A stretch of 64,000 nt of DNA from an uncultured Verrucomicrobiae bacterium (GCA_963812605.1 CAWEWF010000014.1:224001-288000); one strand, 5' to 3'. Counted from the first letter of the stretch, positions 20,096-44,060 are shown. The notes: generated by a model from the sequence alone, not told the origin. Numbers and translations: made by a program.

Positions 20096-20136
20096 TGGCG
20101 GCGCCGAAAGGTTTACACCGACTCGCTTCGCATTGT

Positions 20137-20430: not shown

Positions 20431-20455
20431 GTAATTCCTAACTTGAAAACCCGGC

Positions 20456-21430: not shown

Positions 21431-21602
21431 AGGCGCTCCGACATTGCCAATCTGGGTTGATTCAAAATCTCTTAGTTCCGGTCATGCGACGTGTGCTGGG
21501 ATCAAAATCATCTCTTCAGAGTCGGGTGATTTTACACTCTACAACCCGAATATTTATGGCCTTCGGTGAAACAACTTCCGAAGTAGCGGACCTATTGACG
21601 AA

Positions 21603-23786: not shown

Positions 23787-23840
23787 GTTCGTGGACCTCA
23801 ATTGGGTTGTGGCAAATGACGCTTCGTTTGATCTCCCGCA

Positions 23841-24756: not shown

Positions 24757-24777
24757 CGTATCTCCTTGGGTTGGTTG

Positions 24778-24793
24778 TGCAAGGTGCCTGCCA
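24778..24793 (-). promoter_or_regulatory. sigma54 promoter
   Basis: TGGCAGG-CACC-TTGCA with exact -24/-12 spacing, 21 nt upstream of ATG. Confidence 0.65.
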
Positions 24794-24994
24794 TCCGGGA
24801 CCCTGAAGCTGGGAAAACCGACAGGTCGTCGGCGCGCCAACGTTTCTTTGAAAGGCTCTGTTTCGTATTCACATCTACCTGTACGGTTGGCTGCGAAGTA
24901 TCTTGCAGAGCGACCCGCTTCTCCCGAGCAGCACCTCTTTTACCTTCTTCCCCTCGAACAGGTCAATCATTTCCCATTTGCCTATGGGGCCTTA

Positions 24995-25010
24995 CACAAG
25001 GAGTGACAAC
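24995..25010 (+). repeat. Boundary motif copy C
   Basis: cacaaggagtgacaac, 15/16 identical to 36001-36016. Confidence 0.6.
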
Positions 25011-25047
25011 GTTTCTGGCAAGGACTACCGCGACGAGAGGTGACGAT

Positions 25048-26346
25048 TTATGGTGTCGCGCCGATCTCGAAGGCCAAAACAGCACGCTGAATTTCGTACT
25101 CGTACTTGGCGCTGGTGTGAGCGATTGCGGCTTCGGTCTTGTTGAGTTGCGCCTGGCTGAGTTCCACGATGGAACTACTGCCCAATTTGTAGCGCGCCTC
25201 GGCGAGGTCGTACGCATGACTGGCGTTGTCGAAAAGCTTTTGAGTCAGGTCGAGCCTTTCCCAGGCGTAATTCACATTCAGACCCGCCGCGCGCACGTCA
25301 TGAATCGCCGTGTTCTCGGCGTCCCGTAGTTTTTCCGCTGCCGCCTGGGCGCGCAACTCAGCTTCCGAGCGCTTTGCGGAATTCAGGCCACCGTCAAAGA
25401 TCGGCAGGCTCAGATTAACACCGGCGGCGGCGTATCGATCGTCAAAATGAGCCGTGTCGCGCACGGGAATAAGACCGCCGCTTCCGAACGCGTTGATGGT
25501 TGGATAGCTTAGGGCTTTTTGCGCCCCGGCGTATTGCGCGGCCGCTTCGCGCTCGAGTCGCAGGCGAGCCAGGTCTGGTCGCCTTGACAACGCCACGTCA
25601 ACCAGGGATGAGGCATCCGTAGGCGCCGTGATCAACATCGGTTCTTCGATTAGCCGATACGCCCGCTTTTCCCGGTCTCCCAGCAGCGTCGAGAGGACGG
25701 CAAACGCCTCTTCCAAATCATTCTGCGCCTTGGCGACCAGCAGGTTGCCCTCTTCGTAGGCCACCTGGGAAAAGCTGAGGTCGAGTTCGGATCGGAGTTT
25801 ATTTGTGGCCAACGCGGCAACCTGATCCAGAAGCAATTTTCGCGTGTCCAGGGTTTGACGGGCGACATCCAGCACGGATTGCGCTTTCAGCGCTGTAAAA
25901 AAGGCCACCTCCACTTGTAGCAGTATTTCCTCACGCGTTGCCTCGGCATTGGCATTTTGTGCGCGTGAATAGAACCGGGAACTATTCAGCAGATGCGCGG
26001 TTCGCCCAAAATCCGTCAACATCTGCGTGACCGTAAGTCCCTCCGCTTCGCGATCAAAAACGGAAGGGTTATTCAAGCTGCCCGCCGCCAGGCGCGTGTT
26101 CCCTTCGAAAGCATCGACCGCCGTGGCGTTCAACGTCACATTCGGCAGGAACCCGGCGCGGACCTGCGTTACCACCTGCTGGGAGGCGAGCGCTTCCAGT
26201 TCGGCCTCGGAAATCCGGGGATGATTGCGAAGCGTGATCTCCTGTGCTTCTTTCAAAGTCAAAGGGTGCGCTTCCTCGGCGCACATTGGGCGAAGACCCA
26301 ACCCGAAGAAGCAGAGCAACGTTAGCCAGACGCAGGCTTTATTCAC
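25048..26346 (-). CDS. TolC-family outer membrane efflux protein
   Basis: Signal peptide, RPDL, LSLPIFDGG, RYKLG.SS.VEL. Confidence 0.92.
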   Translation of the reverse strand: MNKACVWLTLLCFFGLGLRPMCAEEAHPLTLKEAQEITLRNHPRISEAELEALASQQVVTQVRAGFLPNVTLNATAVDAFEGNTRLAAGSLNNPSVFDREAEGLTVTQMLTDFGRTAHLLNSSRFYSRAQNANAEATREEILLQVEVAFFTALKAQSVLDVARQTLDTRKLLLDQVAALATNKLRSELDLSFSQVAYEEGNLLVAKAQNDLEEAFAVLSTLLGDREKRAYRLIEEPMLITAPTDASSLVDVALSRRPDLARLRLEREAAAQYAGAQKALSYPTINAFGSGGLIPVRDTAHFDDRYAAAGVNLSLPIFDGGLNSAKRSEAELRAQAAAEKLRDAENTAIHDVRAAGLNVNYAWERLDLTQKLFDNASHAYDLAEARYKLGSSSIVELSQAQLNKTEAAIAHTSAKYEYEIQRAVLAFEIGATP

Positions 26347-29300
26347 GCCAACTCCCTGTTCGGTGCGACACCGGCAGCTTTCCGTCGATAAACCAGCAGG
26401 TAGGCCGCCGGTACAATGAACACCGTGAGGACAACGGATACGGCAAGACCGCCGATGATCGCCCGGGCCAGCGGCGCGTACGCTTCGCTGCCGGTACCGA
26501 GCTTGGCCGCCATCGGAATCAGGCCGATCAGCGTGGCCAGGGAAGTCATCAACACGGGCCGCAGCCGTACGCGGCAGGCCAGCACCGCTGCTTCCTTGAG
26601 CGGACGGCCCTCGGCGCGCAGACGGTTGGTGAATTCGACAATCAAAATGCTGTTGGACACCACGATACCCACCATCATGATTACGCCCATCAGCGACATC
26701 ACATTCAGCGTGGTGCCGGTGATGAACAGGAAGACAATCACACCGGTCAGGCCGGTGGGCACCGCCAGCAGGATCAAGAGCGGATCCACCCAGGATTGGA
26801 ATTGAGCGACGAGGATCAGGTAGACCAGCAACGTGGACAGAATCAGTCCCAGACCAAAGCTCTGGAACGATGCACGCATGGCCTCCACGGAACCGCGCAC
26901 GGTGACGGTCATGTTTTCCGGCAACCCGATCTGGCCAATGATCTTCTGGACGCCGGCATAGATGCGGCCCAAGTCTTCGCCCGACGGCGCAACATACACG
27001 TCAATGGTGCGTCGTATCTGATAGTGGTCGACTTCGGTGGGACGCGGTGACGTGGGAAATCCGCACCACGGAATCCAGCCGCGTGGGTTGCTTCAAGTTC
27101 GCCGCACGCAGCGGCATCGAACCGAGATCGGCAAGGTTCTTCACGGTGTCCTCTGGATATTCGACAGTCAACAGGTAGTTGTTGCCTGTCTTCGGATCGA
27201 TCCAGTAACTCGGAGCGATCATTCCGTCTGACGTCAGCGCGGTAATGAGGCTGTCCACAACTTCTTTGGCGCTGAGCCCGAGTTCGCTGGCGCGCTCGCG
27301 ATCGATGCTCAGTTTCAGGGCCGGATAATCCACGTCCTGCGGCACGAGCACATCGCTGACCCCGGGCAATCGGCGCACCTGTTGCGCGATCTTGTTGGCG
27401 ATGTCGTGGGCGCCCTTCATGTCCATGCTGCTGACCTGAATATCGAGCGGCGCGGGCATTCCCAGATTCAAGATGGCGTCCACCAGCCCGCCGGTTTGGA
27501 AATAGGCGCTTACCTGTGGCAGGTCGCGTTCCAGACGGGCCCGCACAAGGTTCATGTAGGCAAAGCTGCTGAGGCGATGGCTGTCGTTCAGCCCCACTTG
27601 TACGAACGCGGTGTGGGGACCCGAGTTGGGAGTGAAGATGGCAGAAAAGCCCGGCGTCACGCCGATGTTGGAGACGATGATTTTGAGGTCCTGCCTGGGA
27701 ACAACGTCCCGCACAATGTCCTCGACCTGGCCGACGAGTTTGTCCGTCAGTTCAATCCGCGTTCCGGAGGGCGCCTTGAGGTTGATGACGAATTGGCCGG
27801 GGTCGGTGCGCGGGAAGTAGGCCTTGCCGACAAACGGATAAAGCGCCAGGCTGAGTCACGAAAATGCCGATGATGCCGAGGACGGTCGCCAACGGTCGCA
27901 GCAACGCGATATTCAGAGAACCTTCGTAGCGATCGAGCATTCGGGTGAACCAGCGATTGAACCCGGCATTGAACTTCTGACCCCACGTTTCCGGCTCCGG
28001 CGTGTTCGCCTGTGCCGTCGTGTGCGCGTGCCCCTTGATCAATCTCGCGCAGAACAGCGGCACGACCGTCATCGCCACGAAATACGAGGCGAACAACGAC
28101 AGCACGACCGATAATGCCAGCGCCGTAAACAGAAACCGGCTGACGCCGTAGAGGAACAGCACAGGGAAGAAAACCACGACCGTCGTGAGCGTCGCCGCCA
28201 ATACGGCCAACTCAACTTCTTTGCCGCCTTTTTCCGCGGCGACTTCCGGCGGCTCGCCCATTTCCAAGTGGCGGAAGATATTTTCCAGCACAATCACGGA
28301 GTTATCGATCAGCCGGGAGAAGACCAGTGCCAGACCGCCCAGGATCATCGCGTTGATGGTGTTGCCGCCCAGGGCCAGCGCAATGAACGCGGCCAGCGCG
28401 GACAGCGGAATGGACAAGAACACCGCAGCGGTGGCCCGCATACTGCCGAGGAAGATGAGGATCATCACGCCGGTAAGCACCAGGCCGATGGCGCCCTCGT
28501 GAATCAATGTCTCGATGGCGGTGCGGACGAACACCGATTGGTCAAACACGACCTCGGTGACGAGCCGCTTGGGCACGTCGAGCAATTTGGCGACACGGGA
28601 CCGGACGCCGTCGACCACGGCAATCGTGTTGGCGTCGCCGCCCATCTTCATGACCGGCAGATACACCGAGTGCTGGCTGTTGACGCGGACAATGTTGTAT
28701 TGGATTTGCGAGGCATCTTGGGCTTTGCCGACATCGGCGACCAACACGGATGCGTTCCCGACGGTTTTCAGCGGGACCTGATTGAGGTCCTGCATCGCGT
28801 TGATTTGGCTGTCGGCATAGACGTTGTAATCATACGGCCCGATCTTCACGTCACCCGCCGGCAAGATCAGGTTGGCTTCATTTACCGTCCGGACGACATC
28901 CATCACGCTCAACTGGTGCGCCTCAAGCTTGAGCGGATCCACGTAGACCATGATCTGGCGGTACCGGCCGCCGAAGGCCGGCGGCACGGATGCGCCGGGC
29001 ACGCCGGCCATCTGGTTGCGCACGGTGAACTGGCCGAGGTCCCGCAGTTGGGCCTCGGTCAGTCCCTGGCCCTTCAAGGTGACGAGGCATACCGGCAGGC
29101 TCGAGGCGTCAAACTTCATTACTACCGGCGGCAGCGTACCCGGCGGAAGATAGCGCAGACTGGCCATGGCGAGATTGGCAATGCTGGTGACATCGGAATC
29201 CGGATTGGAGCCAGGTTGAAAATACACCTTGATAAGACTGACACCCGTCAAGGAGCGCGACTCCATATGGTCGATGCCGGAGGCCAGCGTGAACATCCGC

Positions 29301-29497
29301 TCGAACTGGCCGGTGATGTCGTTCTCGATCTGCTCGGGAGCCATCCCGGAATAAAACGTGGCGACGACCACGACGGGAATCCGTATCGCCGGAAACAGAT
29401 CGACGGGCATGCGTCCCACGCTCGTCACGCCTACCACGCAGGTGATCAGGCAGAGTACGATAATCAGATACGGGTATCGGAGTGCAAAACGTGACAT
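26343..29497 (-). CDS. RND efflux permease (two apparent frameshifts)
   Basis: MPVDLFP, IDNSVIVLENI.R, GIVVSNSIL.VE, RLRPVLMT; shifts near 27855 and 27045. Confidence 0.9.
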
Positions 29498-29513
29498 GGC
29501 GAGAATTGGTTCC

Positions 29514-30209
29514 TTACGGACGCTGTTTTCTGACGCCGGCCCGAAGTTTTTCGATGGAAAATTCCGGTGACTGACACAGTTGGATGAGTGCCTGCTCCTT
29601 CGCGGCGATTTCCGCGGCCACCGGTGGAATCCGGGCGGCAATATCCTCCGGGATGGATTGAACCCCGTGCTGGTCACCGTGCAGCAAATCTCCGGACTGG
29701 ATCTTCAGTCCGCCGATCTCAACCGGCGTGCCGATTTCGACGATGTGAACGTAGGCATGCGAAACCGAGAGGCTACCGGCGAAAAGTTGGAAGCCAAGTT
29801 CTTCGGCGGCTGGTATCGCCCGCACCGCGCCATTGGTAACGGCGCCGATACAACCGAGCGCGCGCAGAATATTGACGTGCACCGCGCCGAGCAATGATGC
29901 GAGGCCGGGCCGAGTGGCTATGTCCTGCACCACCACCACTCGCGGCGCGGGGACTGAGACGACGTAGTCCCACCAGTCGGTCCGGTCCATGTAGGTGTCA
30001 CCAGCCACTGGTGGCCCTGATCCCCGAATCTTTACCGTAACAGCGTAGCCGGCGATCGGCGGAAGGTGCGGAAACAGGCAGCGTATACTGCCATCTGCAA
30101 ATCCCTCGTTGCGCAGGCGTTCTTGAAAGGTCTCGATGGCATTGGCCAGGGTGCAAGCGTCCAGCCGACGCAAGGCCTCCAGTTGCTCGGGTGTCAGGGG
30201 TATTTTCAT
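29514..30209 (-). CDS. RraA / HMG aldolase family protein
   Basis: GYAVT, G.VTNGAVR, GDLLHGD.HGV..IP. Confidence 0.9.
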   Translation of the reverse strand: MKIPLTPEQLEALRRLDACTLANAIETFQERLRNEGFADGSIRCLFPHLPPIAGYAVTVKIRGSGPPVAGDTYMDRTDWWDYVVSVPAPRVVVVQDIATRPGLASLLGAVHVNILRALGCIGAVTNGAVRAIPAAEELGFQLFAGSLSVSHAYVHIVEIGTPVEIGGLKIQSGDLLHGDQHGVQSIPEDIAARIPPVAAEIAAKEQALIQLCQSPEFSIEKLRAGVRKQRP

Positions 30210-31387
30210 TTCACAGCCTCCGGCTCAATTGTTCTCGGCTCGACCTTCTGGCCCGGTTTGAGTTGGGCCGGATTGTCCATTATCACCAAATCCCCTTCGC
30301 GCAGACCGGAGACGACTTCGTACTTGAAAGGCGTTTCGAGCCCAAGCGTTACGGGGCGTTCTTCGATTTCATGCCTGGCATTGACGACGAGAACTTTGGT
30401 GGCGCCGCCCGAGGCCGAGGCCTGGATGGGAATGGCCAGAGATTGCGGCCGATTTTCCACATTCAATACCACGGTGGCATACATCCCCGGGATGATTTCG
30501 AGATTCGGGTTGAGGACCTCCATTTCGGTGATCATTGTCCGAGTGTTGTCGGTCACCTTTTGCGTGAAACGCGAGATGGTGCCGGTGAACGATTTGCCGC
30601 CGAGCGATTCCACGCGCACGTCGACTTTGTCCCCCAGATGAATGTCTTTGACGTACTGCACGGACACGGGGAAATCGAGTCGGAGCCGGTAGTTGTCGGA
30701 AACCCGCACCAGTGGCATGGCTTGAGAGCCGGAAGCCGTGCCGGCCTGAATGAGCGTACCGGGATCGGCATACCGCCAGGTGACCACGCCATCGAATGGG
30801 GCGGTGATTTGCGTGTAGCTGACCAATGTCTGGTACTTTTCCACGTCGGCTTTGGCGGCCACGACGGCGGCTGCCGTGACGCGATCTTTCGCCTCAGCAG
30901 TGTCGAGGTCCTGCTGGGCGACGAGATTGGGCTGCTGCTGGTTAACCGAGATGAGGCGCGTGTAGATGAGATGGGCGTCCGTGTGGTCGGCCTCGGCCTT
31001 TTGTACCGCCGCCATGGCGTTGTGGAGGTCATCCAGCAGTTCTGGAACTTCCAACGTAGCCATGAGTTGGCCGGCCTTCACGCGGTCGCCGAAGTCCACC
31101 TTCATTTCGCTGACGTAACCGGAAACCTTCGCGTGCAATTCCACTTCTTCATAGGGCCGGAACTCCGCCGGGATGGTCACCTCCCGGTAAAGGTCTTCGC
31201 GACCCACTTTGGCCACGGCGACCGTGGGGAGCACGGAGTTTGCGGACGCGCGATCGGCATCCGCTCGCACGCGCTGCACTGACCATACCAAGGCCATGGC
31301 CACCAACAGCAACCCTGCGACAAGGACCAGCCGCAGTTTGGAAGACGCTACTTTCTCACGCAAAAAATGGGCGAAACCTGGTTTCAT
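30206..31387 (-). CDS. RND periplasmic adaptor subunit
   Basis: AKVSGYV....VD.GD.VK.GQ, ITAPFDGVV, PGMY. Confidence 0.93.
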   Translation of the reverse strand: MKPGFAHFLREKVASSKLRLVLVAGLLLVAMALVWSVQRVRADADRASANSVLPTVAVAKVGREDLYREVTIPAEFRPYEEVELHAKVSGYVSEMKVDFGDRVKAGQLMATLEVPELLDDLHNAMAAVQKAEADHTDAHLIYTRLISVNQQQPNLVAQQDLDTAEAKDRVTAAAVVAAKADVEKYQTLVSYTQITAPFDGVVTWRYADPGTLIQAGTASGSQAMPLVRVSDNYRLRLDFPVSVQYVKDIHLGDKVDVRVESLGGKSFTGTISRFTQKVTDNTRTMITEMEVLNPNLEIIPGMYATVVLNVENRPQSLAIPIQASASGGATKVLVVNARHEIEERPVTLGLETPFKYEVVSGLREGDLVIMDNPAQLKPGQKVEPRTIEPEAVK

Positions 31388-31394
31388 ACAGTTC

Positions 31395-32813
31395 TCATGG
31401 CGACTTATTGGCGCGGGCGATGGGGAGTTTCACGCGGAACCGGCTTCCGACGCCGTTGCTTTCTACTTCCACGATGGCTCCATGCGCGGTGCAAATGGAT
31501 TTGACGATGGAGAGACCCAGGCCGGCTCCTTCGGGATCACGCGTTCGGGCTTTGTCCACGCGAAAGAATCGTTCAAAAACGTGCGGCAGGGCGTCCGCCG
31601 GGATGCCGATGCCGTTGTCCGAAACTTCCAGTATGGCGTGGCCGTTAACGGCGGCGACACGCAACTGGATCCGGCCTTTTTCCGGCGTGTATTTAATGGC
31701 GTTGTCGAGCAGGTTGACGACGACTTGCTTGAGACGCGCGCGATCTCCGTCCACCAGGACAGGCTGCGCCGCCTCACACGAGACTGAAATTCCTTTGTCT
31801 TCCGCGAGCAGGCTCATTTGCTCGGCGGTCGTGGCCACCAATTCGGCCAGGTCAAACTGCACCCATTCCGCCTGTGAGTCGCCGGCGTCGAGACGCGAGA
31901 TGGCGAACAATTGTTCGACTATTCTGGCAAGTCGTTCCACCTCTTCCAGCACGCTGCCGACGATCTCGCGAAACTCGGGCGCGAGGGTCCGGTTGGAGGA
32001 CATGCTCTCCAGTTCAGCGCGCACGACAGTCAGGGGCGTGCGCAACTCATGGGAAGCGTCGGCGACGAAGCGCTTGGAATTCAAGAAGGCGTCCTGCAGG
32101 CGTCCAATCATGTGATTCAAGGAAAGTGCAAGCCGCTCCAGTTCGTCCGCGGTCCGCGCCAGCGGCAGGCGTTCGCTCAAATTGTGCTGGGTGATCTGCT
32201 CCGCCTTGCGGGCAATCTGGTCCACGGGCGCCAGCGCGCGTCCGACCAGGAGGTAGCCGCCGCCGATGGCGATGAGGACGGCGATCGGCAGTCCGAGCGC
32301 CAGTTGCAAGGATAGATGATCCAGCATCGTTTCCACGGGATCAAACGGGGCGCCGACTTCAATCAGATACCGGGCACCATCTGGTGTCTGATAATTCAAA
32401 GCCGCGATGAGCAGGGTAGTGTTCCCCGGTAAACGCGCCTTTTGTGAGAACTCCTTCCGTGACGACGACGCCAACGGAGGAAGATGCGTCGGATCAAAGC
32501 TTTGGTCGTTGGGAATTCCCGACGCGTAAACGATATTGCCATCCCCTCGCGTGACACGAATGAAACGGTCGTTGATCTCCGGTTCGTAGAGATCTTTTAT
32601 TTCGGCGGCCAGATACCCTTCGCCGGTCTGGTGAACGCGCGCCACCAACGTGTCGGCAATTTGCCGCGCCCGCCGTGCCTGTGTGTCGCGCAGGTTGCTT
32701 TCGAGAAAAAACTTCAGGTCGAAATACATCAACACGGCCAGCAACACAAAGACGCCGGTCAGGAGGCCCGCATACCAGGCAATCAACCGGAATCGAATGG
32801 ATCGTGTGGTCAC
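31395..32813 (-). CDS. HAMP-containing sensor histidine kinase (CusS-like)
   Basis: Two TMs, HAMP, ASHELRTPL, NLLDNAIKY, FERFFR, GLGLSI. Confidence 0.94.
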   Translation of the reverse strand: MTTRSIRFRLIAWYAGLLTGVFVLLAVLMYFDLKFFLESNLRDTQARRARQIADTLVARVHQTGEGYLAAEIKDLYEPEINDRFIRVTRGDGNIVYASGIPNDQSFDPTHLPPLASSSRKEFSQKARLPGNTTLLIAALNYQTPDGARYLIEVGAPFDPVETMLDHLSLQLALGLPIAVLIAIGGGYLLVGRALAPVDQIARKAEQITQHNLSERLPLARTADELERLALSLNHMIGRLQDAFLNSKRFVADASHELRTPLTVVRAELESMSSNRTLAPEFREIVGSVLEEVERLARIVEQLFAISRLDAGDSQAEWVQFDLAELVATTAEQMSLLAEDKGISVSCEAAQPVLVDGDRARLKQVVVNLLDNAIKYTPEKGRIQLRVAAVNGHAILEVSDNGIGIPADALPHVFERFFRVDKARTRDPEGAGLGLSIVKSICTAHGAIVEVESNGVGSRFRVKLPIARANKSP

Positions 32814-33490
32814 GATTCGACCTCGTCTGTCAGGCAATAACCGGTCCCACGCACGGTGCGGATGAGTTTGCACTTGTGCGCTTCGTCCACCTTTTCACGA
32901 AGATGGCGCACGTAAACGTCGACGATGTTCGTGAGGCCCTCGAAGCTTTCGTCCCATACGTGCTCGATAATCATCGTGCGGGAGAGCACGCGGCCCGCGT
33001 GCGAAGCCAGATATTCGAGCAACGCGTACTCCTTGGAGGTCAATTCAATCCGTTTTCCCGCCCGTCGAACTTGCTGGGTGAGGCGGTCGATTTCGAGATC
33101 GGCAACCCGCAGCACCGGGTCGCGGCCGGCGGGAGGGCGGCGCAGCAACGCCTTGACGCGCACCAGCAATTCGGCGAAGGCGAATGGCTTGGTCAGGTAA
33201 TCATCGGCGCCGGCCTCGAAATTCTCGACCTTGTCGCCGGTGGCATCGCGCGCCGTCAGCACCAGCACCGGCGCCTTGCCACCCTTTCGACGCAGGCGGC
33301 GCAGCAATTCCGTTCCATTAAGTCCCGGCAGCATCAGGTCGAGGACGATAAGATCGTAGTCAACACCCGAGGCCATTTCCCAGCCGGTGTTGCCGTCATA
33401 GGCGACATCGACGGCGAAGCGTTCAGCCCGCAGGCCGCGGGCCACCACATCGGCGACCTTTTGTTCATCTTCTATGAGTAACAAGCGCAT
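32810..33490 (-). CDS. OmpR-family response regulator (CusR-like)
   Basis: IEDE, DLMLP, GADDYL.KPF, NIVDVYV..LR.K, TVRG.GY. Confidence 0.95.
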   Translation of the reverse strand: MRLLLIEDEQKVADVVARGLRAERFAVDVAYDGNTGWEMASGVDYDLIVLDLMLPGLNGTELLRRLRRKGGKAPVLVLTARDATGDKVENFEAGADDYLTKPFAFAELLVRVKALLRRPPAGRDPVLRVADLEIDRLTQQVRRAGKRIELTSKEYALLEYLASHAGRVLSRTMIIEHVWDESFEGLTNIVDVYVRHLREKVDEAHKCKLIRTVRGTGYCLTDEVES

Positions 33491-33516
33491 GGGACCTTCG
33501 ACACATCAGCACCATC

Positions 33517-33575
33517 GCAGACTCACATTAAACCCCAATGAACCCCGCGTTAAAATCCATTCAGAAACTTTCATT
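33517..33575 (-). promoter_or_regulatory. Putative OmpR-family tandem binding sites
   Basis: Minus strand TGAAT/TTAAC/TTCAT/TTAAT at 10-11 bp spacing, upstream of the regulator. Confidence 0.45.
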
Positions 33576-33787
33576 GTTTGCCGGCTTGCGGTAAGCAGGT
33601 GTTGTCATGAAGAACCTACGGACTTATCTTTCTCTTATGGGCTCAGCACTATTATGGTCGAGTTGCGCCTACAATCAACACCGCCTTTCTGGATTCAACG
33701 AGGCGAATTCCGTGCGACTGCCTGACGGCGAAATCGTCGGTCGGCGGGCGGCGGAGTAGAATCCGTGCGCGTTGTAATTGGCGAAAG

Positions 33788-34321
33788 ATGAAGAATTCGT
33801 TCATGGCCGGGCTGGTCGCGGGCCTGTTGCCTTTGCTCGCTTCCTGTGCGGGTTCACGAGGCCCTTTGGTGATCGGTCCCGTTGGTCCGGAAACATCGAG
33901 GCGGATTGAAGCGACGCCCACGGGCTATCTCAAAGTCTACTCCGCCACGGAAGACCACAAGGACGGGAATATGCATTACTTCCCTCACACGAGTTACAGC
34001 ATTTGCACGGAAGACGGAAAGATTTTGAGGAAAGTGGCCAACGCCATCGGCGTTCATGACGAGGATCCGGCGTTGGTGGAGTTGCCAGCGGGAACATACA
34101 CCGCCCTGGCTGAGTCCAAATGTTACGGTATGGTGAAAGTCAAGGTGGTCATCGAGCGCGGAAAACTGACGACGGTCAACCTGGAGTGCAATCAACCATC
34201 CCCACGCGATCCCACCAAGAGCGTACACGATTCGGTGCGCTTGCCGAACGGCTCTGTCGTTGGTTGGCGGGCAGACGGATCGCCACAAGTGAGCGCGACT
34301 GGGTCAGCACAATTGCAGTAG
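33788..34321 (+). CDS. Putative lipoprotein
   Basis: Lipobox LLASC; beta-rich LPAGTY..V.V.IE.GK.T.V domain. Confidence 0.75.
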   Translation: MKNSFMAGLVAGLLPLLASCAGSRGPLVIGPVGPETSRRIEATPTGYLKVYSATEDHKDGNMHYFPHTSYSICTEDGKILRKVANAIGVHDEDPALVELPAGTYTALAESKCYGMVKVKVVIERGKLTTVNLECNQPSPRDPTKSVHDSVRLPNGSVVGWRADGSPQVSATGSAQLQ

Positions 34322-34360
34322 GGGCCGGCCTTTGATCCTTCAGCGATGCCGGCAGCATTT

Positions 34361-35719
34361 CTACGCAGTACTGCTCCTCGAAACTGTTTCGATGCGAATG
34401 CGGCTTAGCAACAACACCAATATTTCGAGAGTAACAAAGTGCATCATGCAATTCCACAGTACCACGGCATCCGGTGCGACGTTCTGCTTGAGGCTTGGGA
34501 TCAAAGACCAGGTTCCCGCAGTGATAACCGCCGCACAAGTCCCCCAGCGCCGGTTCATCACCGAGGCGAGGACAGCGCAAGGAATCAAATAAAACGGTGC
34601 GACGGAGACATGGGGAGGAGTGAGATAGGCCAGGACCGCCACGTTCGTCAAAATGGCGTAACTCACCAACACCGTAACCCAGTTTTCGGAAAATTCCCGC
34701 CAGAGGGAAGGGCGAGTTGACAGCGTTGCCATTTGCCCGGCGCGAAACCAGTCTTTCAATTCACGATAGGTCCGCAGCCAGGCCAAGGGCAGGAATTCGA
34801 AGAGCGCACGTTTAATGTTGTGCATGGTCCAAAGGAGCTTCCCGGTCATTTTGCAGTAGAGACGCTCGGCCAGAGTGGGTTCCGGGTGGGTGGACAACTC
34901 GTGGTTTACGTCGAAGCCTTCCCTTCGCAACCGAATCCAGCGCGTCTGAAAGCGCTGCAGTTTCTCCACAATGCCCAGATCGACCACTTCGTTGGGGAAT
35001 TCCCGGCGTTCGATGATGCCCCGACGCAGGTGCTCGTGATGTGGCGCCAGGTGAACGGCTGAAAAATCGGCCGTGCGGAGATCCAGCATTTTTCCGTCAA
35101 ATTCGATCCCCAAGAACTCGCAGAGGCCCCGGCAGACTTCCTCGGTCTTGTCGACCAGGTCGGGGTACGTCACGTTGTGCACCCGGAATCCTGCGCGCTT
35201 CAAATCGACGGCGTGCTGGGTCATTTCCTCCTGATGGAAAATCATTTTCGTCAACCAGCCCTTGCGACGGAAAAAAGGCGCCCTGCGTCCAGCTTGTGCG
35301 ACACTTCGATAGATCTCTACGGGGTCGCGCCAAACCAAAATAAAGCGGGCGTTGGGGAAGTGCTTGGCCAACTGCCGCAACCGCGCGCAGTACATGGGCG
35401 ACTTTTCCCCATAAAGAGCGGCGCCTTTGCCCTGGCTGAATGTGCGATACACGTCCAAGGGGATCTTCACGCTCTCCAGCCCGCGCAAACTGCCTTTCAA
35501 GACCAGCCGATGACGCGCGAGCGCGTGGCTGAAGAACTCTTGTCGTTCGAGCCAATTGCCGCGAAACCGCTCGGCGGAAAGGACTTCTGGAAAGTCCCAG
35601 ACGTTCCACTCGTACATCAAAGCCACTTGCGGATGCTGGTTGAGCAGGGAATACAACAACGACGTTCCTGATCGAAAGAAGCCCACGACAAAGACCGGGT
35701 CTGAAGAATTTGAACTCAT
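34361..35719 (-). CDS. Sulfotransferase with C-terminal 4-TM domain
   Basis: VG..RSGTSLL, GEKSP, RDP...Y.S PAPS motifs; hydrophobic C-terminus. Confidence 0.88.
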   Translation of the reverse strand: MSSNSSDPVFVVGFFRSGTSLLYSLLNQHPQVALMYEWNVWDFPEVLSAERFRGNWLERQEFFSHALARHRLVLKGSLRGLESVKIPLDVYRTFSQGKGAALYGEKSPMYCARLRQLAKHFPNARFILVWRDPVEIYRSVAQAGRRAPFFRRKGWLTKMIFHQEEMTQHAVDLKRAGFRVHNVTYPDLVDKTEEVCRGLCEFLGIEFDGKMLDLRTADFSAVHLAPHHEHLRRGIIERREFPNEVVDLGIVEKLQRFQTRWIRLRREGFDVNHELSTHPEPTLAERLYCKMTGKLLWTMHNIKRALFEFLPLAWLRTYRELKDWFRAGQMATLSTRPSLWREFSENWVTVLVSYAILTNVAVLAYLTPPHVSVAPFYLIPCAVLASVMNRRWGTCAAVITAGTWSLIPSLKQNVAPDAVVLWNCMMHFVTLEILVLLLSRIRIETVSRSSTA

Positions 35720-35739
35720 GCTTTACGATCCCATGCTAA

Positions 35740-35767
35740 ATGTTAAAGCCGAACTCAATTGTGTCAA
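35740..35767 (-). promoter_or_regulatory. sigma70 promoter of the sulfotransferase
   Basis: TTGACA-16-TAACAT. Confidence 0.55.
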
Positions 35768-35846
35768 GATTATATCAGCATTGACGGATACTTTAACGGA
35801 GGGACGGTCGAATGGCAAGTTCGTTGGTCTCGTGCGGGGATGTATT

Positions 35847-36020
35847 GAGCGCAATTGGGCGGCATGGGGCGCAGTGGGCCCCGTCCGCAGGGGGTCCCCG
35901 TTTGTCTCTTCCCGGCGCGGCCCCCAATTTTGCCCGGACAACCGCCACCGCGCGGTTGCCTGGACGTTAGCTCACTTCATCCTGAATCGCGTCATTGTGG
36001 CACGAGGAGTGACAACTTTT
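35847..36020 (+). repeat. Boundary unit copy B (decayed tRNA-half-like stretch + conserved arm)
   Basis: ctcacttcatcctgaatcgcgtcattgtggcacgaggagtgacaa aligns with 38470-38514; 35847-35876 matches the tRNA half at 17/30 at nearly the same offset. Confidence 0.7.
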
Positions 36021-36069
36021 CAGAAATGACGAAGAACCACTCGGACGGTGGCAGCCCCAATTTGGTTCC

Positions 36070-37744
36070 TTAGTTGAATGCAGCCACTTCGTAATAGTAC
36101 GTCGTCGAGGGATGCAGACCCGTATCCGTGTAGGTGGTCACGTTCGCCCCCACGGTGCCAATGACGCTCCAGGGCCCACCAGGCGATGTGGCCCGCGAGA
36201 TTTGAAATCCCGGTTTCATTATCCGAGTTGTCCTGCCAGGTGAGGGTGATGGATTTGGGCGTCACCACCATTGTCGCCAGATTCGAAGGCGGGGTGGGAG
36301 GTGACGACGGGGGGGGTGACGGCACAGGCGGGGACGGCACAGGAGGTGTCGGCGCGGGCGAAAGTGTCGTCGCACAGGTTGCGGGACTGGCCGACGAGTT
36401 GTTTCCCGCGTTGCCGTAGGCGACAATCGTGTAGCAGTACAATGTGGCAGCCGACAAATCGCTGTCGCCGTAGCTGGTCGCGGTCGTCGTGGTGACCAGG
36501 GTGCCGTTGCGGTAGACTTGGTAACCAGCCAGACCGGAGCCGGTCGAGGCATTCCAACTTACGCTGACTTGGGATATCGAAGTGGCGGTCGCGATGACCC
36601 CGCTCGGGATTGATAGCGGGGTGTAATTCGTGTTGACCAAGGTCTCTCCATTCGCCTCGTTCGAGTAAAGCGAGTAGCCCGTGCTGTTGTAGGCGCGGAG
36701 GCGATAATAATAAACCGTCGCGTCGGACAACCCCGAGTCCGCATAAGTCGTCGAGTTGGTGATACTGATGGGAATCCATGGCCCGTTTGGTGTCGGGCTC
36801 CGCTCAATCTTAAAGCCGGCGGCACCCGCCGCGCTGTAAGACCAAGCCAGGTCGATGGTGTTAAACGTGTCCGCAGGAGCGCTGAGGTCTGCTGGCGCCG
36901 GCAATTCAGGCCCGGCTTTTTTCGGCACGCCATAATTGTAAAGGAGCACGCTATTGGTCTGGTTGCAGGTACTAACCGTGACCTGAAGCATGCGGGCGTC
37001 CGGTCCCATGGTCAGGCAAAAATCGGTGGCGGTCGAAAAGTAGGGCGTTCCAATGACCAGCACATCAGTCGGGTTCCCGCCCACAGGGTCAACCGACACA
37101 TTCACAGGGCCACAGGAAGGGTCGCTCGCAGCATTCAGAATGTTCACTTGGAAGCAAACCGTATCGCCCGCATAATGCAACACCATCGTGCTGGATTTGA
37201 CTTCGCTGACCATGACGACCGTATCGGAGGACGGGAGAGTCGGCACGAGCGCCTTCAACTGTTGACCGAAAGTTACCGCACTTAACATTGCCTTCAAGGC
37301 CGCGCTGTCCGTGACGCCGGGGTTGCCCACCGCAGCCTCGGCCTTTAGAAGTTGGCTCTGGAAGCGGGAAAGGCTTTTCTGCAGCGTCTTGCTCGTATTC
37401 CCCAGTGCGACGGTCATGTCGGGCGACTGTACTGTTGCCACGAGGCCGTCCGCAAAGTCGAGGGTCAGGCCAAGCTGCGCTGAGGCGATTGTCCGTCTGG
37501 ATTGCGCCACACTAACCGCCGCTTCCGTCAGGCTGTCCAGCAGCGGGCACAATTGCGCTTCGATGTCCCCGGCGGCATTGGTGGTGGTGTCCGCGCGGAC
37601 CACTGCGGCCCCCAATAGATTGAAAGCGATCAGGAGTGAAAGCAATCCACAGCGATGAAAAAAGCCGCTCAGAAACGACGTTCTGGCGCTTGCATCTACA
37701 GCTACTTTCGACAACCCTTGGAAACGATCTTTTACAACCTCCAC
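36070..37744 (-). CDS. Secreted fibronectin type III repeat protein
   Basis: Signal peptide; three FN3 repeats (W..GF.IER..Y.D.GL....Y.Y); indel near 36205, true stop at 36070. Confidence 0.85.
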
Positions 37745-37789
37745 TACGAATTCCCCCTATACCTATCCTAAACTTGCGGAGGGGACGAA

Positions 37790-37805
37790 CGCAGACGCTG
37801 TGCCA
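37790..37805 (-). promoter_or_regulatory. sigma54-like promoter
   Basis: TGGCACA-GCGT-CTGCG, correct GG/GC spacing. Confidence 0.45.
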
Positions 37806-38090
37806 GTACCCTCTCGACACGGGGGATTTGCTCAATCCGGGGCGGAACTCTTGCTCGAGATAGCCCGTTATCTTACGGGTTCTCCCAAAAGTTGGCAGAC
37901 TTGTATGCCAGCACTTTTCTACCTTGTCTGGCTATACACCGAGTAGTCGCATACCCATCAGCGACACCACTTTTTAATTACGACTGATGGCTAAACAAAT
38001 TTACAAACCGTGTCGCGCACAGCCATGGATTGCTTGATCGGTGGCAACTTTCTTTCCACCCCATGAAAACTTTCCTGACACATTTTCCCA

Positions 38091-38256
38091 GATCCTGTCT
38101 CCTCCAGAATCGGGGCCAGACCGCCCCCGGTGTAGCCGCGCCTCTGTGAGGCGCATGATCCGGTCTCCTCCAGAATCAGGACCAGACCGCCCCCGGTGTA
38201 GCCGCGCCTCTGTGAGGCGCGTGATCCGGTCTCCTCCGGAATCGGGGTCAGGCTGC
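38091..38256. repeat. 66-bp tandem repeat x2.5 containing a GTAG REP hairpin
   Basis: Units start at 38091, 38157, 38223; tgtagccgcgcctctgtgaggcgc in the first two. Confidence 0.9.
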
Positions 38257-38338
38257 CCGTCGAGCGCACCGGCCGGGCGCGCGTTGCCGAAAATTTGGTT
38301 CAGAAGGGTACGGCGCGGTGGGATCGACGATTTGAATT

Positions 38339-38377
38339 GTGCCAGGGTAGCTCAGTGGTAGAGCAGGGGGCTCATAA
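38339..38377 (+). pseudogene. 5' half of tRNA(CAT), att-like duplicate
   Basis: 38/39 identical to 40782-40820; ends exactly after the anticodon loop CTCATAA. Confidence 0.92.
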
Positions 38378-38469
38378 TTCTAAAGGGCATTTTTCTCCCA
38401 TTTCGTCTGGTGTGTGCCTCTATCATCTAAGGCAGTCAAAGTAAGCCTTGCACGGAAATCGCACTTCAT

Positions 38470-38534
38470 CTCACTTAATCCCAAATCGCCGCATTTTCGC
38501 ACGAGGAGTGACAAGTTAGAGTGACAAGTTTTTT
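38470..38534 (+). repeat. Boundary unit copy A arm with gagtgacaagtt direct repeat
   Basis: cacgaggagtgacaagttagagtgacaagtttttt. Confidence 0.75.
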
Positions 38535-38568
38535 ATCCGAACCGATGTTTCGGACTACTGAGTCCACG

Positions 38569-40329
38569 TTACTGTATACCAACCCGGTAAAAATATGGAC
38601 CGCCGTTGGTAACCGTCATATCCGAGTAGGCCGTCGATCCGGCTTGGCCGACGATGTTGCTTTCAATGCTCTGAAACGCAGACTGCCCGATCAGGCTGGT
38701 ACTTCTCTGGAGATAGTAGGTTCGAGTATTGACGCTTTGCCAACTCACGGTCCAGCCAGACTGATTGTTCGTCGGAGTCAGTGATAGAATCTTCAACACC
38801 GATAGTGAGTTCGTGGGATCCGTCCCTGCAATCCATTCCTGCCAATTGTTCATCCCGTCTCCGTCGGTGTCCGCATAATCGGCGCTTCCGTCTACGGCTA
38901 ATCCGTATTGCTCAAGCCAAGCGTAAGAGATAATTGACGTGGGCGTTTGATATTCGTAAGCGCCAATGTCCACGGTCCCACCCACGATTCGGGGTAAACC
39001 TGCTAAATCGGTACTGGTATACACCGCTGTGTTGTCCCCAGCGTTGATGCACGGCGAATTCGGCAGTAGTTGAAATCCCGCGCCGAAGAGTGGCGCATTC
39101 GTGATATTTCTCGTTACGCCCAGATCTGGTGTGCAGCAAGAATGAATATTACCCGGGGTGGATGAACTGTTATTCGGTGCTGAGGATGCGGTATTGTAAT
39201 AATTAATACAATTGACTAGGCCGGACTCATATTCGCCACCTCCGGTCTCACTCGCATTATTTCCGGTAATTGTGCAGTTGTGAAGCTGCGCGTAGTACGC
39301 ACCGCCGCCGTAACCTGCTGAATTACTTACGACCAAACAATTGAATAAATTGCCACCGCTGGTGCCGCCCCCATCTGACGCAAAATTCCCCCTAATTATG
39401 CAATTGACCATGGTTAGATCGTCACCATTTCCCCCTCCACCGAATCCAGAACCATTACCTGACAGCACCGAGTTGGACACCGAACCCCCAAGTACGCCTC
39501 CACCGCTGTAACTTGAGGAGTTACCGGCGAAGATACAATTACTCGAAACACTCTCGTAAGCACCGCCGCCCCCGTAAGACGCAGAATTCCCTGTAATTGT
39601 GCAATTGTTCAGTATGCACGTGTTGGCGCCTCCACCTGCTGCACCGGCCCCATTCGCCCGATTGCTGTTCACCGTACAATTATTCAGTGTGCAGTAGATT
39701 GCGCCGCCCCCGCTCGTGCTTCCGGTCATGCTACCACACGTCACATTGGCTGTTAACGTACAGTTGTTAAGTATCGAATCGTACGCGCCGCCACCGCTTG
39801 CCGTGCACACGTTCAGGGCCAAAGTGCAATTGCTAAGCGTGCCCGAATAGGCACCCCCTCCGGAAGATGCCGTGTTACTGACGAGCAGACAGCCCGACAC
39901 CAATGCGTTTGTAGACGCACACCAGACCACCGCACCTCCGCCCGTGAATCCGTTGGTCAAACTGAAACCCGTTAGTGCTGCGCCGTCAGCCAAATACACG
40001 CACCGCATTGCGTGACCGCCATTTATCAATGTTGCGGTCGGCCCATTTACGCTTTGCAAACTAATCGAATTGGTTACGGCAACACGGTTGGTTGTCCCGT
40101 CGTTCACCAGTCTAAAGCCAGTTTGGTAAACACCATTAGTCACGACCACTTGGTCGCCTGAATTGGCAGAGTCAACTGCATCCTGAATGTTCGTTGCTGC
40201 GGTGCTCCAACTTCCGTAGGGTGGCACGGGATTGGCGCTATTCAAATTCACATAGTGAATTGCTGCCTGAGTAGCTATGACCTGTAATGCCAGAAGCGCT
40301 GCCGCTAAATGTGGCCATTGAACTTTCAT
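38569..40329 (-). CDS. Secreted parallel beta-helix repeat protein (choice-of-anchor Q-like)
   Basis: AATNIQDAVD, repeated GGGA..L.NC...N, SPCINAG..VDIGAYE, DTDGDGMNNWQEWIAGTDP; lower GC than core genes. Confidence 0.88.
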   Translation of the reverse strand: MKVQWPHLAAALLALQVIATQAAIHYVNLNSANPVPPYGSWSTAATNIQDAVDSANSGDQVVVTNGVYQTGFRLVNDGTTNRVAVTNSISLQSVNGPTATLINGGHAMRCVYLADGAALTGFSLTNGFTGGGAVVWCASTNALVSGCLLVSNTASSGGGAYSGTLSNCTLALNVCTASGGGAYDSILNNCTLTANVTCGSMTGSTSGGGAIYCTLNNCTVNSNRANGAGAAGGGANTCILNNCTITGNSASYGGGGAYESVSSNCIFAGNSSSYSGGGVLGGSVSNSVLSGNGSGFGGGGNGDDLTMVNCIIRGNFASDGGGTSGGNLFNCLVVSNSAGYGGGAYYAQLHNCTITGNNASETGGGEYESGLVNCINYYNTASSAPNNSSSTPGNIHSCCTPDLGVTRNITNAPLFGAGFQLLPNSPCINAGDNTAVYTSTDLAGLPRIVGGTVDIGAYEYQTPTSIISYAWLEQYGLAVDGSADYADTDGDGMNNWQEWIAGTDPTNSLSVLKILSLTPTNNQSGWTVSWQSVNTRTYYLQRSTSLIGQSAFQSIESNIVGQAGSTAYSDMTVTNGGPYFYRVGIQ

Positions 40330-40552
40330 GTGGCGCTCTCGCAAAGCCATAACATTTAACCTGCCTTTCCTTCCAAATACAAGAACCAACCGCGACAGTC
40401 ATTAGCGGAACGAAAGAGACACAGGGGCAGGGTGCCGCCCAAGTTTCCCTTTCGACTCCTTTCCCCCGACCCGCTCCACGATGCAGATGGATCGACCTGG
40501 ACTTCATGCCTGCTTGTGTTGAGTTTTAGATGCATATTGCAGGGAAAGGAAC

Positions 40553-40590
40553 GAACGTCCAACGTCAAACGCTCAACTTTCAACGCCCAA
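40553..40590. repeat. 7-bp period tandem repeat, same family as 64-101
   Basis: gaacgtc caacgtc aaacgct caacttt caacgcc caa. Confidence 0.78.
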
Positions 40591-40783
40591 GTCAGGAGGA
40601 AGAGGCGGAAGGGAATTCTGGTTCGCTGGAGACGCGGAGGAAAGGGAAAAGCAATCGGCGGTCCCTTCGGTCCGACTCAGGGCGGGCGCCGACCGCCGCT
40701 CCACCGGCAGGAGCCGAGGAGTTGGAAAAAGGCAGTTGAAATTTCCGGGCGGGTCGCTAATCATGCGGCTCTTCCACCACAGT

Positions 40784-40858
40784 GCCAGGGTAGCTCAGTG
40801 GTAGAGCAGGGGACTCATAAGCCCTTGGTCGGGAGTTCAACTCTCCCCCCTGGCACCA
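40784..40858 (+). tRNA. tRNA with CAT anticodon, probably tRNA-Ile2 (lysidine)
   Basis: GCCAGGGTAGCTCAGTGGTAGAGCAGGGGACTCATAAGCCCTTGGTCGGGAGTTCAACTCTCCCCCCTGGCACCA; paired 1:72, so not initiator; GACTCATAA loop as in Ile2. Confidence 0.93.
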
Positions 40859-40866
40859 TTTTTCTT

Positions 40867-42306
40867 CTATATCGGCGTAATCGCGAAAGTTGCGAAGCGT
40901 AAGACCGGCGGCGCTGCTTCAGCCATCCTTTGTAGCGAAGGTCATCCCACATCGTGAAACGCCTGTTGTGAAGCATTTGTTTTCGCCGGGCCGGGGAGAC
41001 GTCCAGTTCTTCCATCCACTGGACGAGGCGGCGGAAAAGTTCCTGGGCTGGTGCGGGGTGCTTCGCGATCACGTTGTGCTCGTGCCGCGGATCGGTCGGG
41101 ACGTGAAACAGTTCCGAGCCTTCCAGTCCGCGCACGGGCGAGTACACCAAAGCCCATTCGTCCGTCCAAACGCTCAGGCAACCGACGCGACCCTTGTGCG
41201 GATGGCAGCCGCCGACGGCGAATTTTTGCGGACTGGGCTGGCCGCCGAGCATCGGGACCAGAGAATGCCCCTGGTTCCACGGCACCGCCGGGATTCCCGC
41301 CAAGTCCAGAACGGTGGCGTACAAATCGGGCGGTTGGGTCAGTCCGTGAATCGTTTTCCCGGCACCCAGCGCTTTCGGGTGACGGATCAAGCAAGGGGAT
41401 GTGGCCGAGTTCCTCGTAGATCTTAAGGGGTTCTTTGCCGCGCAACGGTTTCCCGATAAGCCCGTGTTCGCCCAGATAATAACCGTGGTCGGAGCAGAAG
41501 AGGATCGCGGTATCGTCCTGCAATTTTTTCTCGCGCAGTGTCGCGAGAAGCTGGCCCATCCAGAAATCGATCTGCGTGACCTCGGCTTTGTAAAGGCTGC
41601 GCATGTTCTCGATGTCCGCGGCGGGATACTGCGAGGCGTCACCCGATTTCGGCCAGAAGACGGCATCGCCTGTGCTTATTCCAAGGGTAGGGCTTGAGGA
41701 ATTCGCCGGGGGCGTCCCAAGGCTCATGCGGGTCGAAGGCGTCTATCCACAGGAAAAACTTTTCGGGCGGGTCGCTCCAGCCATTCCATCGACGAACGGA
41801 AAACCGTGGCGGTCGTATTCGTGCCCTGTTGTTGGTACCAGTAGGCGTTCCGCCGATAGCGTTCGAGTCGATGCGGTGGCGGCTCCAGTTTTTCAGGCAT
41901 ACAGGGCAAATCAATCATCGGCGCGGACGCCGGTTGAAAGGGATCGTGGCACTGGCCGGGCACGTTCTTGACGAAATCAAACCCGCGCTCGAACCCAAAG
42001 TGGTCTTCGAAGAGGTGAAGGTTGTCGGCGATCAGGGCGGTGGTGAATCCGTGCTGCTTGAAGACCTGCGAAAGGACCGGGGAATTCGTAGGGCAGTTTC
42101 CCCCAGTTATAGAGCGGGAAGGTGTAGCGGCCAGTGAAGACTTCGATGCGGTTGACGAGGGTCGGGAACGAGCACAGCCAGAAATCGGCGAACACGGCGC
42201 TTTCGCGGGCGAACTGATCCAATTGGGGAGTCGAGACTGGTTGCTGCCCGAGAAAGCCGAGATGGTCGAACCGGAAAGTGTCCGAGCAGATGACGATGAC
42301 GTTCAT
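40867..42306 (-). CDS. Sulfatase-fold (alkaline phosphatase superfamily) protein, several apparent frameshifts
   Basis: ICSDTFR.DH, FDPHEPW, SDHG..LGEHG, YEE..HIP, DL..T.LDL, ELF....DP.. spread over four ORFs; 3' end approximate. Confidence 0.78.
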
Positions 42307-43085: not shown

Positions 43086-43093
43086 GCGCTCCT

Positions 43094-43969: not shown

Positions 43970-44060
43970 CAATTCCCCATTCGGCGTGTTATCCGGCGGC
44001 GGCATTATTGTGGCGGCCCATTCCAGAATCAAGGCGTAATGGCGAAAAAAGGTGCGGCCG

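Follow-up and report, generated by a model that had tools for sequence, protein, structure and literature searches.

The window analysed here, a stretch of 64,000 nucleotides from the genome of an uncultured Verrucomicrobiae bacterium (GCA_963812605.1, CAWEWF010000014.1:224001-288000; coordinates are counted from its first letter), contains a tRNA-Met(CAT) gene whose upstream flank a first-pass annotation, made from the sequence alone, had described as an integron-like array of integrase-less cassettes marked by tRNA 5'-half scars of graded age. Our analysis indicates that the part from 35971 to 40783 is probably a tandem array, now decayed, in which two integrative elements that target tRNA-Met(CAT) from its 5' side have left remnants without an integrase. 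The evidence consists of a displaced copy of the 5' half of the tRNA, of an adjoining arm with tandem repeats that is conserved in related genomes, and of integrase-bearing versions of the same anatomy in one relative and in one metagenome contig.

Anatomy of the locus

The half-tRNA copy noticed by the first-pass annotation is reproduced by alignment. Positions 38339-38377 agree with 40782-40820 at 38 of 39 bases and end at tRNA position 37, the final base of the 7-nt anticodon loop, that is, at the canonical sublocation for crossover. A BLAST search of the whole 4.17-Mb source genome finds this copy only once, and it lies, like the intact gene, on the plus strand with the 5' fragment on the upstream side, as a tRNA-targeting island requires. 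The target is widespread, with a match of 84-100% identity in 39 of the 40 related genomes that form our wider set (the 39 with any match); the genus set comprises 18 genomes, 17 of them other than the source.

Behind the half-tRNA follows an element-derived arm (Table 1) that ends in the tandem repeat noted earlier, with GAGTGACAAGTT at 38506-38517 and 38519-38530 as an exact tandem of a 13-nt unit. A 45-bp part of this arm (38470-38514) has the expected homolog at 35971-36015, with 38 of 45 bases identical, and the whole-genome search returns these two places only. The nhmmer values for both arms were obtained with a module hidden Markov model (HMM) built only from 10 relatives' copies. The bare 10-mer GGAGTGACAA occurs 10 times in the genome where about 8 copies are expected (an estimate from the size of the genome) and is thus not enriched, and therefore it is the longer module, rather than the short motif, that carries the significance. 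Near tRNA-Pro, two copies of the motif (812 and 3604), which share a common 15-mer, lack the extended repeat and are missed by the unit HMM, were taken as unrelated, and a single 10-mer GAGTGACAA copy is found about 0.7 kb from the C10 integrase of the source genome, within unrelated sequence.

The window holds no integrase, as had been stated. PF00589 has 0 matches in it, all 12 matches of the genome lying elsewhere, and a search for an integrase remnant in 20000-42000 returned noise only (best tblastn E 0.13). No arm site within 2 mismatches is found upstream of the intact tRNA or of the half-tRNA; the far-side tandem at 38506-38530 is present.

Table 1. Features of the tRNA-Met locus and of its upstream flank, in order of position
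Feature	Position	Strand	Evidence or remark
Candidate third arm relic	24992..25017	+	21/23 vs single-arm variants; nhmmer E=8.1 genome-wide, rank 4
TolC-AcrB-RraA-like-HlyD-histidine kinase-response regulator block	25048..33571	-	Pfam
Cassette B arm relic, single GAGTGACAAC, one 13-nt repeat lost	35971..36018	+	84% identical to arm A; nhmmer E=3e-10
Cassette B cargo, FN3-domain protein	36020..37744	-	Pfam fn3, 1.9e-12
Leader-like segment directly 5' of half-tRNA	38304..38338	+	85-90% identity to 35-74 nt upstream of intact tRNA in G002:C199, G012:C10
Displaced 5' half of tRNA-Met (2 nt upstream + tRNA positions 1-37)	38339..38377	+	Core of attL-type site
Element-derived arm of attL module, two tandem arm-type sites GAGTGACAAGTT at its end	38378..38530	+	nhmmer E=2.8e-50
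Cassette A cargo, secreted beta-helix-like protein, choice-of-anchor Q domain + TSP3 repeat	38569..40389	-	NCBIfam NF041518 1.5e-13; Pfam TSP3_bac
Conserved ~100-nt segment ('utr5')	40405..40510	+	Directly after arm sites in most relatives; here beta-helix gene intervenes
Native-type tRNA promoter region, TTGAAA-17-AATCAT at 40736-40764	40715..40783	+	Promoter scan; sigma-70-like
Intact tRNA-Met(CAT)	40784..40858	+	Target, attB/attR core of element family; ARAGORN; Rfam RF00005, 67.4 bits

The locus comprises two cassettes, each with one cargo gene and, according to domain scans, with neither integrase nor relaxase. Cassette A, the inner one, extends from 38378 to about 40714 and has an intact attL-type module. 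Its single cargo gene is the beta-helix gene named in the first-pass annotation, which we find to carry a choice-of-anchor Q domain. The gene has a GC content of 0.53-0.54 against about 0.59 around it, no ortholog in the 17 other genus genomes, where only the C-terminal ~115 aa find a match (34-47%), and no DNA match in the 40 relatives. It takes up exactly the space that here separates the conserved ~100-nt segment from the arm sites. Most other copies have the two side by side, at a distance of 10-15 nt in G002:C218, G008:C157, G003:C109 and G021:C20. Elsewhere this slot holds variable inserts of 0.8-1.9 kb in 7 loci. The slot genes (beta-helix, AAA ATPase, Fic, TPR and unknowns) show no orientation bias, as 4 of the 7 are encoded on the minus strand and 3 on the plus strand, and the ~100-nt segment itself has no sigma-70-like site, so we rejected the idea that it serves as an outward promoter for captured genes in a circular form; that it is a C-terminal coding remnant was also discarded, as it has no consistent frame and does not correspond to the FN3 reading frame. 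The ~100-nt segment is present at further loci in several genomes too, and the sequence families of 40405-40510 and 40653-40703 recur, for example at G000:C3:73656-73751 and C3:62496-62542 and in several relatives; their sequences suggest dispersed non-coding repeats. The stretch 40554-40590, some 200 nt 5' of the intact tRNA, consists of five imperfect 7-nt direct repeats (AACGTCC-like) that are not conserved in relatives.

Cassette B, the outer one, runs from 35971 to about 38338, is without its tRNA core, retains 45 bp of arm with one repeat and carries the FN3 gene, whose label is confirmed by Pfam. An ortholog of this cassette is found in the closest relative (G012:C17), with 89% identical DNA, the same arm downstream and a module that keeps tRNA positions 18-37, and therefore cassette B predates the split from G012. 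The beta-helix gene, being unique to the source genome, makes cassette A the younger of the two. As such, the proposed order with the oldest unit farthest from the tRNA appears to be supported for the two modules by these sequence comparisons. The graded decay of the tRNA halves that went with it has not survived: the decayed half suggested near 35840 has a best ungapped match of 18/39 at 35838 against a shuffle mean of 18.1 (P=0.68), the HMM built from relatives covers the arm part only (positions 120-176), and homology to the ortholog ends at 35971. Likewise, a motif 35-55 bp past the stop codon of each gene is seen for arm A (38 bp) and for the site at 24995 (37 bp) and fails for arm B, which ends about 4 bp from the FN3 stop. 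The leader-like segment 5' of the half-tRNA is similar to the upstream flank of the intact tRNA in G002 and G012, which would be expected had cassette B formerly adjoined the tRNA. Between the FN3 gene start and the half-tRNA lies a 66-nt tandem repeat (38091-38243; 2.3 copies, 94% identical), which is partly kept in G012:C17.

The module in relatives and its integrase-bearing versions

Comparison of 34000-44000 with the 40 related genomes shows that the stretch from half-tRNA to arm (38339-38532) is conserved, with 72-84% identity, at no fewer than 10 loci within the genus; cassette content at tRNA-Met differs among the relatives, as an accreting locus had led the first-pass annotation to expect. 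In an alignment of 19 copies, the 5' half up to ..CTCATAA is followed by 17 conserved nt, about 95 variable nt, about 45 conserved nt and two tandem GAGTGACAA, after which most copies carry the ~100-nt segment with a hairpin. Across 29 distinct copies, the arm sites are the best-conserved part of the module (0.96 vs 0.74 for its middle), and in many copies the half-tRNA is shortened in its 5' part. The tandem GAGTGACAA-type motif is found at 53 loci in species-representative genomes, 10 of which match the module HMM, all in this genus. Among metagenome contigs, at least 33 module matches occur among the tandem-motif loci listed (at least 121, with flanking DNA taken for 80).

The half together with the next 17 nt (38378-38394 in the window) recurs with 96% identity at the far ends of integrase/TrwC elements in G009, G003 and G001. 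In G009, a 22.6-kb element (G009:C4:98023-120650) lies between the intact tRNA-Met and the 5' half, and its PF00589 integrase starts 93 nt from the tRNA 5' end in divergent orientation. This is an integrative mobilisable element that displaced the 5' half. Tandem GGGTTACAA stands at the far arm, where the source genome has GAGTGACAA, and again between integrase start and tRNA, which gives the classic layout of arm-type sites that flank the core on both sides; the GAGTGACAA repeats, for which the role of arm-type sites had been proposed, thus appear to behave as such. With a cargo of Cas12b-like, Cas4, Cas2, AbiEii, ResIII helicase, DNA methylase and TrwC relaxase genes, the element is a mobilisable defence island, and its Cas12b-like protein is a C2c1-like RuvC protein. 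The same element end is present in G003, with the integrase, and in G001, where the integrase is broken. Farther out, past the 22.6-kb element, lies a small cassette of G009 that has a TPR gene and a GAGTGACAA module but no integrase, and the outermost half bears the native promoter; this arrangement is tandem accretion.

On the metagenome contig L201, a fragment of 1.4 kb, the integrase start is followed by 9 nt, GGAGTGACAAGTCAGAGTGACAAG, a TATAAT box and the intact tRNA-Met, and tandem GAGTGACAAG, as in the module of the source genome, lies between integrase start and tRNA. Integrase-bearing GAGTGACAA-type elements therefore exist. The L201 integrase is 62% identical to that of G009 over 266 aa, and a further metagenome locus (L167) has a distant integrase match (~25%) without the module. 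The search of relatives and metagenome contigs for arms near tyrosine integrases has thus found G009 (GGGTTACAA) and L201, and their anatomy bears out the earlier view that the half-tRNA is a scar of elements whose tyrosine integrase makes its crossover in the anticodon loop, with displacement of the 5' half.

The geometry extends to the integrase family as a whole. At all 30 genus loci with an integrase homolog that we retrieved, the tRNA is divergent from the integrase and lies about 88-102 nt from its start, with tRNA-Met, Thr, four Arg isoacceptors, Lys, Gln and Leu as targets. The same holds for 10 of 11 loci from other Verrucomicrobiota metagenome-assembled genomes, Chthoniobacterales and Pelagicoccus mobilis, the eleventh having too little flank. 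The family integrases are three-part proteins with a weak N-terminal DUF6538-like match, a central core-binding domain and a catalytic domain. In the source genome, 5' halves stand upstream of 7 tRNAs. Of its 7 other half-copies, 5, which belong to four other tRNAs, stop within the anticodon loop or directly after it, at positions 38-41, and those of Pro(tgg) and Ser(cga) extend a few bases further, to 42 and 43. Tandem repeats follow about 170-200 nt after the half start in 5 of 8 half-copies, 4 of which have a related motif next to the integrase. These arm motifs are lineage-specific (CATTGCAACA for Arg-tct, GGGTTACAAC for Lys, AGTATCAAATGG for Pro and a GTTTGCA-type for Arg-cct). Arm repeats occur on both sides of the core in G009, in L201 and in the Arg, Lys and Pro elements of the source genome.

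The source genome also contains, at tRNA-Arg(tct), an array (G000:C1:137421-179466) of two elements, each delimited by perfect 5' halves of 39-40 nt. The first, of 27.5 kb, has an integrase; of the integrase of the second, which measures 14.4 kb, a remnant of 30 aa is all that is left. By analogy, this array is a direct parallel for a presumed decay to an integrase-less relic. The cargo of the 27.5-kb element includes type I restriction-modification genes, AbiU2, an ImuB/DnaE2-like polymerase, LexA and SRAP.

Further observations concern tRNA(CAT) genes. Three relatives have, some 280-380 nt past the intact tRNA-Met gene on its downstream side, a perfect copy of the 3' part of this gene (positions 42-75; L019 4638-4671, L021 7568-7601, L031 5008-5041), and therefore tRNA-Met has been used from the 3' side too, by very small insertions. 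A GC-rich palindrome (CCAGCCCCGA...TCGGGG) forms an insertion of about 50 nt between promoter and tRNA-Met in G012:C10, G002:C199, G006:C35 and G001 and is found once inside a displaced half-tRNA (L021 3212-3248); from its sequence, it looks like a repetitive extragenic palindrome (REP)-like hairpin. In addition, two adjacent unusual tRNA(CAT) genes with atypical sequences, 8 nt apart, are located at G000:C14:751756-751911.

Discussion

We infer the recombination chemistry, the binding of protein to the repeats and the order of events from this anatomy. A tyrosine integrase would recombine attP, which would carry a copy of the tRNA 5' half, with the chromosomal tRNA gene through a crossover in the anticodon loop. 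The element would land upstream of the tRNA, supplying a new 5' half and an upstream promoter, with its integrase gene at the ~88-102 nt from the tRNA 5' end given above. The original 5' half would be displaced to the far end, where it would abut an element arm of about 155 nt with two tandem 9-10-nt arm-type sites, and the same sites would recur between integrase gene and tRNA, as expected for binding by the N-terminal arm-binding domain of the integrase. The source genome would then have kept the far-end (attL-type) modules of two GAGTGACAA-type elements with one cargo gene each, and would have lost the integrase and the integrase-side arm sites from this locus. With these gone, cassettes A and B are most likely immobile by themselves. 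That the sequences upstream of the half and of the intact tRNA are unlike, which the first-pass annotation had raised as a caveat, is no problem because the 5'-crossover model predicts that difference.

Several observations weigh against a decayed array, and the real puzzle among them is the native-looking promoter at the intact tRNA. After a plain 5'-crossover, the native promoter is expected at the outermost half, as in G009 and L218; here, 40715-40783 next to the intact tRNA is 92-94% identical to tRNA-adjacent sequence in G007, G011 and G015 (92% to G007), and our search found no such module in relatives like G007, whose tRNA promoter matches this stretch. G011 and G015 are arranged as the source genome, and G012:C10 and L197 have the promoter on both sides. 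A promoter copy within attP, a later recombination that replaced the integrase-proximal part, an extra deletion, or rearrangements are possible explanations. Furthermore, the decay at the source locus, which shows neither an arm site near tRNA or half nor an integrase remnant, is suggested by the parallel case. In some relatives, modules are located on long contigs away from tRNA-Met (G006:C10, G012:C17), which calls for rearrangement or secondary-site integration, and the strong conservation of arm sites in integrase-less copies could mean that the sites are still in use.

Arm sites still in use would fit integrase-less cassettes that are functional, non-autonomous units, similar to cis-mobilisable elements (CIMEs) or satellites, which a GAGTGACAA-specific integrase from an incoming or co-resident element excises and reintegrates, building an integron-like exchangeable array. 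We consider this unlikely, although it accommodates the conservation of the arm sites above that of the neighbouring segments, the presence of several module copies per genome in G002, G008, G011 and G012, the diverse single genes in the slot between arm and ~100-nt segment, the integrase-less mini-islands of 1.3-3 kb that recur among the metagenome contigs listed (e.g. L197) and the existence of an L201 integrase with matching arm sites; moreover, PMC5704250 describes how streptococcal elements without an integrase are mobilised in cis by accretion. However, in the source genome the upstream flank of the intact tRNA, like that of the half, is free of integrase-side arm sites, and none of the integrases of the 18 genus genomes is more than 64% identical to that of L201, the best of the source genome reaching 48-52% and going with other arm motifs. 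For the 53 loci with the tandem motif in species-representative genomes, no integrase lies within 2 kb. The FN3 cassette differs from its G012 ortholog by about as much as the two genomes differ overall and has thus not moved since the split, and many halves are truncated in their 5' part. A soil run whose low-depth contigs contained 0.08 of the sampled words covered 35500-41500 patchily and without joints and is uninformative on excision. The wider proposal, that the orphan modules with their near-invariant GAGTGACAA and one-gene slot are a trans-mobilised cassette system whose units are shuffled by incoming integrases among the tRNA-Met loci of the genus, is in our view more doubtful still; if true, it would be an integron-like exchange platform based on a tRNA 5' half instead of attC/attI.

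Cargo turnover by homologous recombination would leave the att-like sequences as old relics that mark a hotspot, similar to replacement-type flexible genomic islands, with the attL module, the ~100-nt segment, the promoter and the tRNA as homology anchors. The position of the beta-helix gene, exactly between sequences that adjoin elsewhere, speaks for such an exchange, the native-type promoter at the intact tRNA fits a replacement of the tRNA-proximal part by a 'virgin' allele, and the region is rearranged between genomes, the RND block being inverted in G011 and G015 relative to the source genome. Yet the 40 relatives yielded no donor allele for this cargo, the anchors are short (~100-200 nt) and 72-92% identical between genomes, and it is left unexplained why the arm sites are the best-conserved part, so that we regard this as improbable. 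Least credible of all, and very nearly dismissed, is that half-tRNA and arm form a tRNA-derived non-coding RNA or regulatory leader, or are due to chance or an assembly artefact. The module does begin like a tRNA, stands behind a tRNA promoter in some genomes (G009, L218) and has a hairpin with a short T-run after the arms in most copies. Against an RNA, Rfam matches only the intact tRNA, the consensus fold of 14 copies (-5.8 kcal/mol, covariation term +0.4) shows no covariation, and conservation peaks on the direct repeats and not on paired regions; against an artefact, at least 10 independent genomes and at least 33 metagenome loci carry the module.

Earlier work has described islands that displace the 5' part of a tRNA gene, their accretion in tandem and relics that have no integrase, and the source locus, as a pair of relic islands, is not a new mechanism. 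In the Islander collection, 159 of 3919 islands have a 5' fragment and 3760 a 3' fragment, with 125 tandems (PMC4383910, Table 1). The 5'-fragment islands share with our locus an intact tRNA with a cognate upstream 5' fragment in the same orientation, crossover in the anticodon loop and a tyrosine integrase (here in relatives), whereas the tRNA-Met locus, being without an integrase, would fail Islander's integrase filter. CIMEs, as defined together with a three-step model of accretion and decay for ICESt1-type elements of Streptococcus (PMC5704250), are likewise decayed elements without integration and transfer genes that keep their att sites and are stacked with newer elements at one target, as in the tandem of G009. 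At our locus, by difference, the tRNA accretes elements at its 5' side, arm sites are not recognisable around the attR core (the tRNA), and both a complete pair of att sites and mobility are putative. The tycheposon islands of Prochlorococcus, where according to the account in bioRxiv 10.1101/2020.12.28.424599 successive tRNA integrations push older elements outward and leave degenerated elements and scattered partial tRNAs, resemble our locus in outward displacement at one tRNA, in degenerate elements and in partial tRNAs; they belong to another host phylum, and the likeness concerns the layout of the islands.

The comparison with integrons made by the first-pass annotation goes as far as an array of mostly single-gene units beside a fixed site and does not hold beyond it. 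The slot genes lie in either orientation without bias, our searches found no cognate integrase resident in the genome, and each unit has tRNA-half cores and direct repeats of the arm type as its boundaries. An intI-type integrase is missing, as the window has no tyrosine recombinase and the family integrases score 36 bits against the 265-bit cut-off for integron integrases. Boundaries of the attC type were not seen, tRNA-half cores with direct repeats standing in their place, although no dedicated attC model search was made.

For the window itself, our result is mostly clarifying. More generally, a coherent integrase family of uncultured Verrucomicrobia enters tRNA genes from the 5' side, which is the minority configuration by the Islander counts, and its anatomy gives a simple rule to delimit islands together with decayed remnants that integrase-dependent finders would miss. 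In addition, tRNA-Met, Arg, Lys, Pro and others are flagged as hotspots with defence and surface genes. The strict Verrucomicrobiota geometry, with an integrase about 88-102 nt from the tRNA 5' end and tandem arm sites on both sides, has apparently not been described, within a literature search that was limited and did not target this family in the phylum. What may be new is that this Verrucomicrobial integrase family keeps to the 5' side with a consistent geometry and has lineage-specific arm motifs.

Flanking regions

A third site at 24995 had been put forward as the oldest trace of the array, with the TolC operon as its cassette. The similarity to single-arm variants stands, and the genome-wide E-value is weak (Table 1), so that an arm relic at 24992-25017 is only suggestive, and only so when the search is restricted to the locus. 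The TolC label itself is upheld by Pfam (TolC/OEP). The TolC/RND block is found as one unit in 14 of the 17 other genus genomes, with 75-88% identity, sharp ends at about 25056 and 33571 and varied contexts, and the motif beyond the TolC stop occurs in 0 of the 12 relatives examined. As the block is core-like and the motif absent from those relatives, the efflux operon was not counted as a cassette, and it is outside the demonstrable array.

Two genes near the array are split. The AcrB-type transporter (26343-29677, minus strand) is divided into three open reading frames that correspond to Pfam ACR_tran positions 1-540, 596-803 and 822-1020, and the sulfatase downstream of the tRNA (40815-41727, minus strand) consists of two overlapping frames; both are either pseudogenes or the product of assembly indel errors. 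Finally, the region from 20100 to 25056, which contains a GYF/zinc-ribbon protein gene and has a GC content of 0.52 at 20001-22000, shows weak conservation in the genus and lies between two well-conserved blocks.

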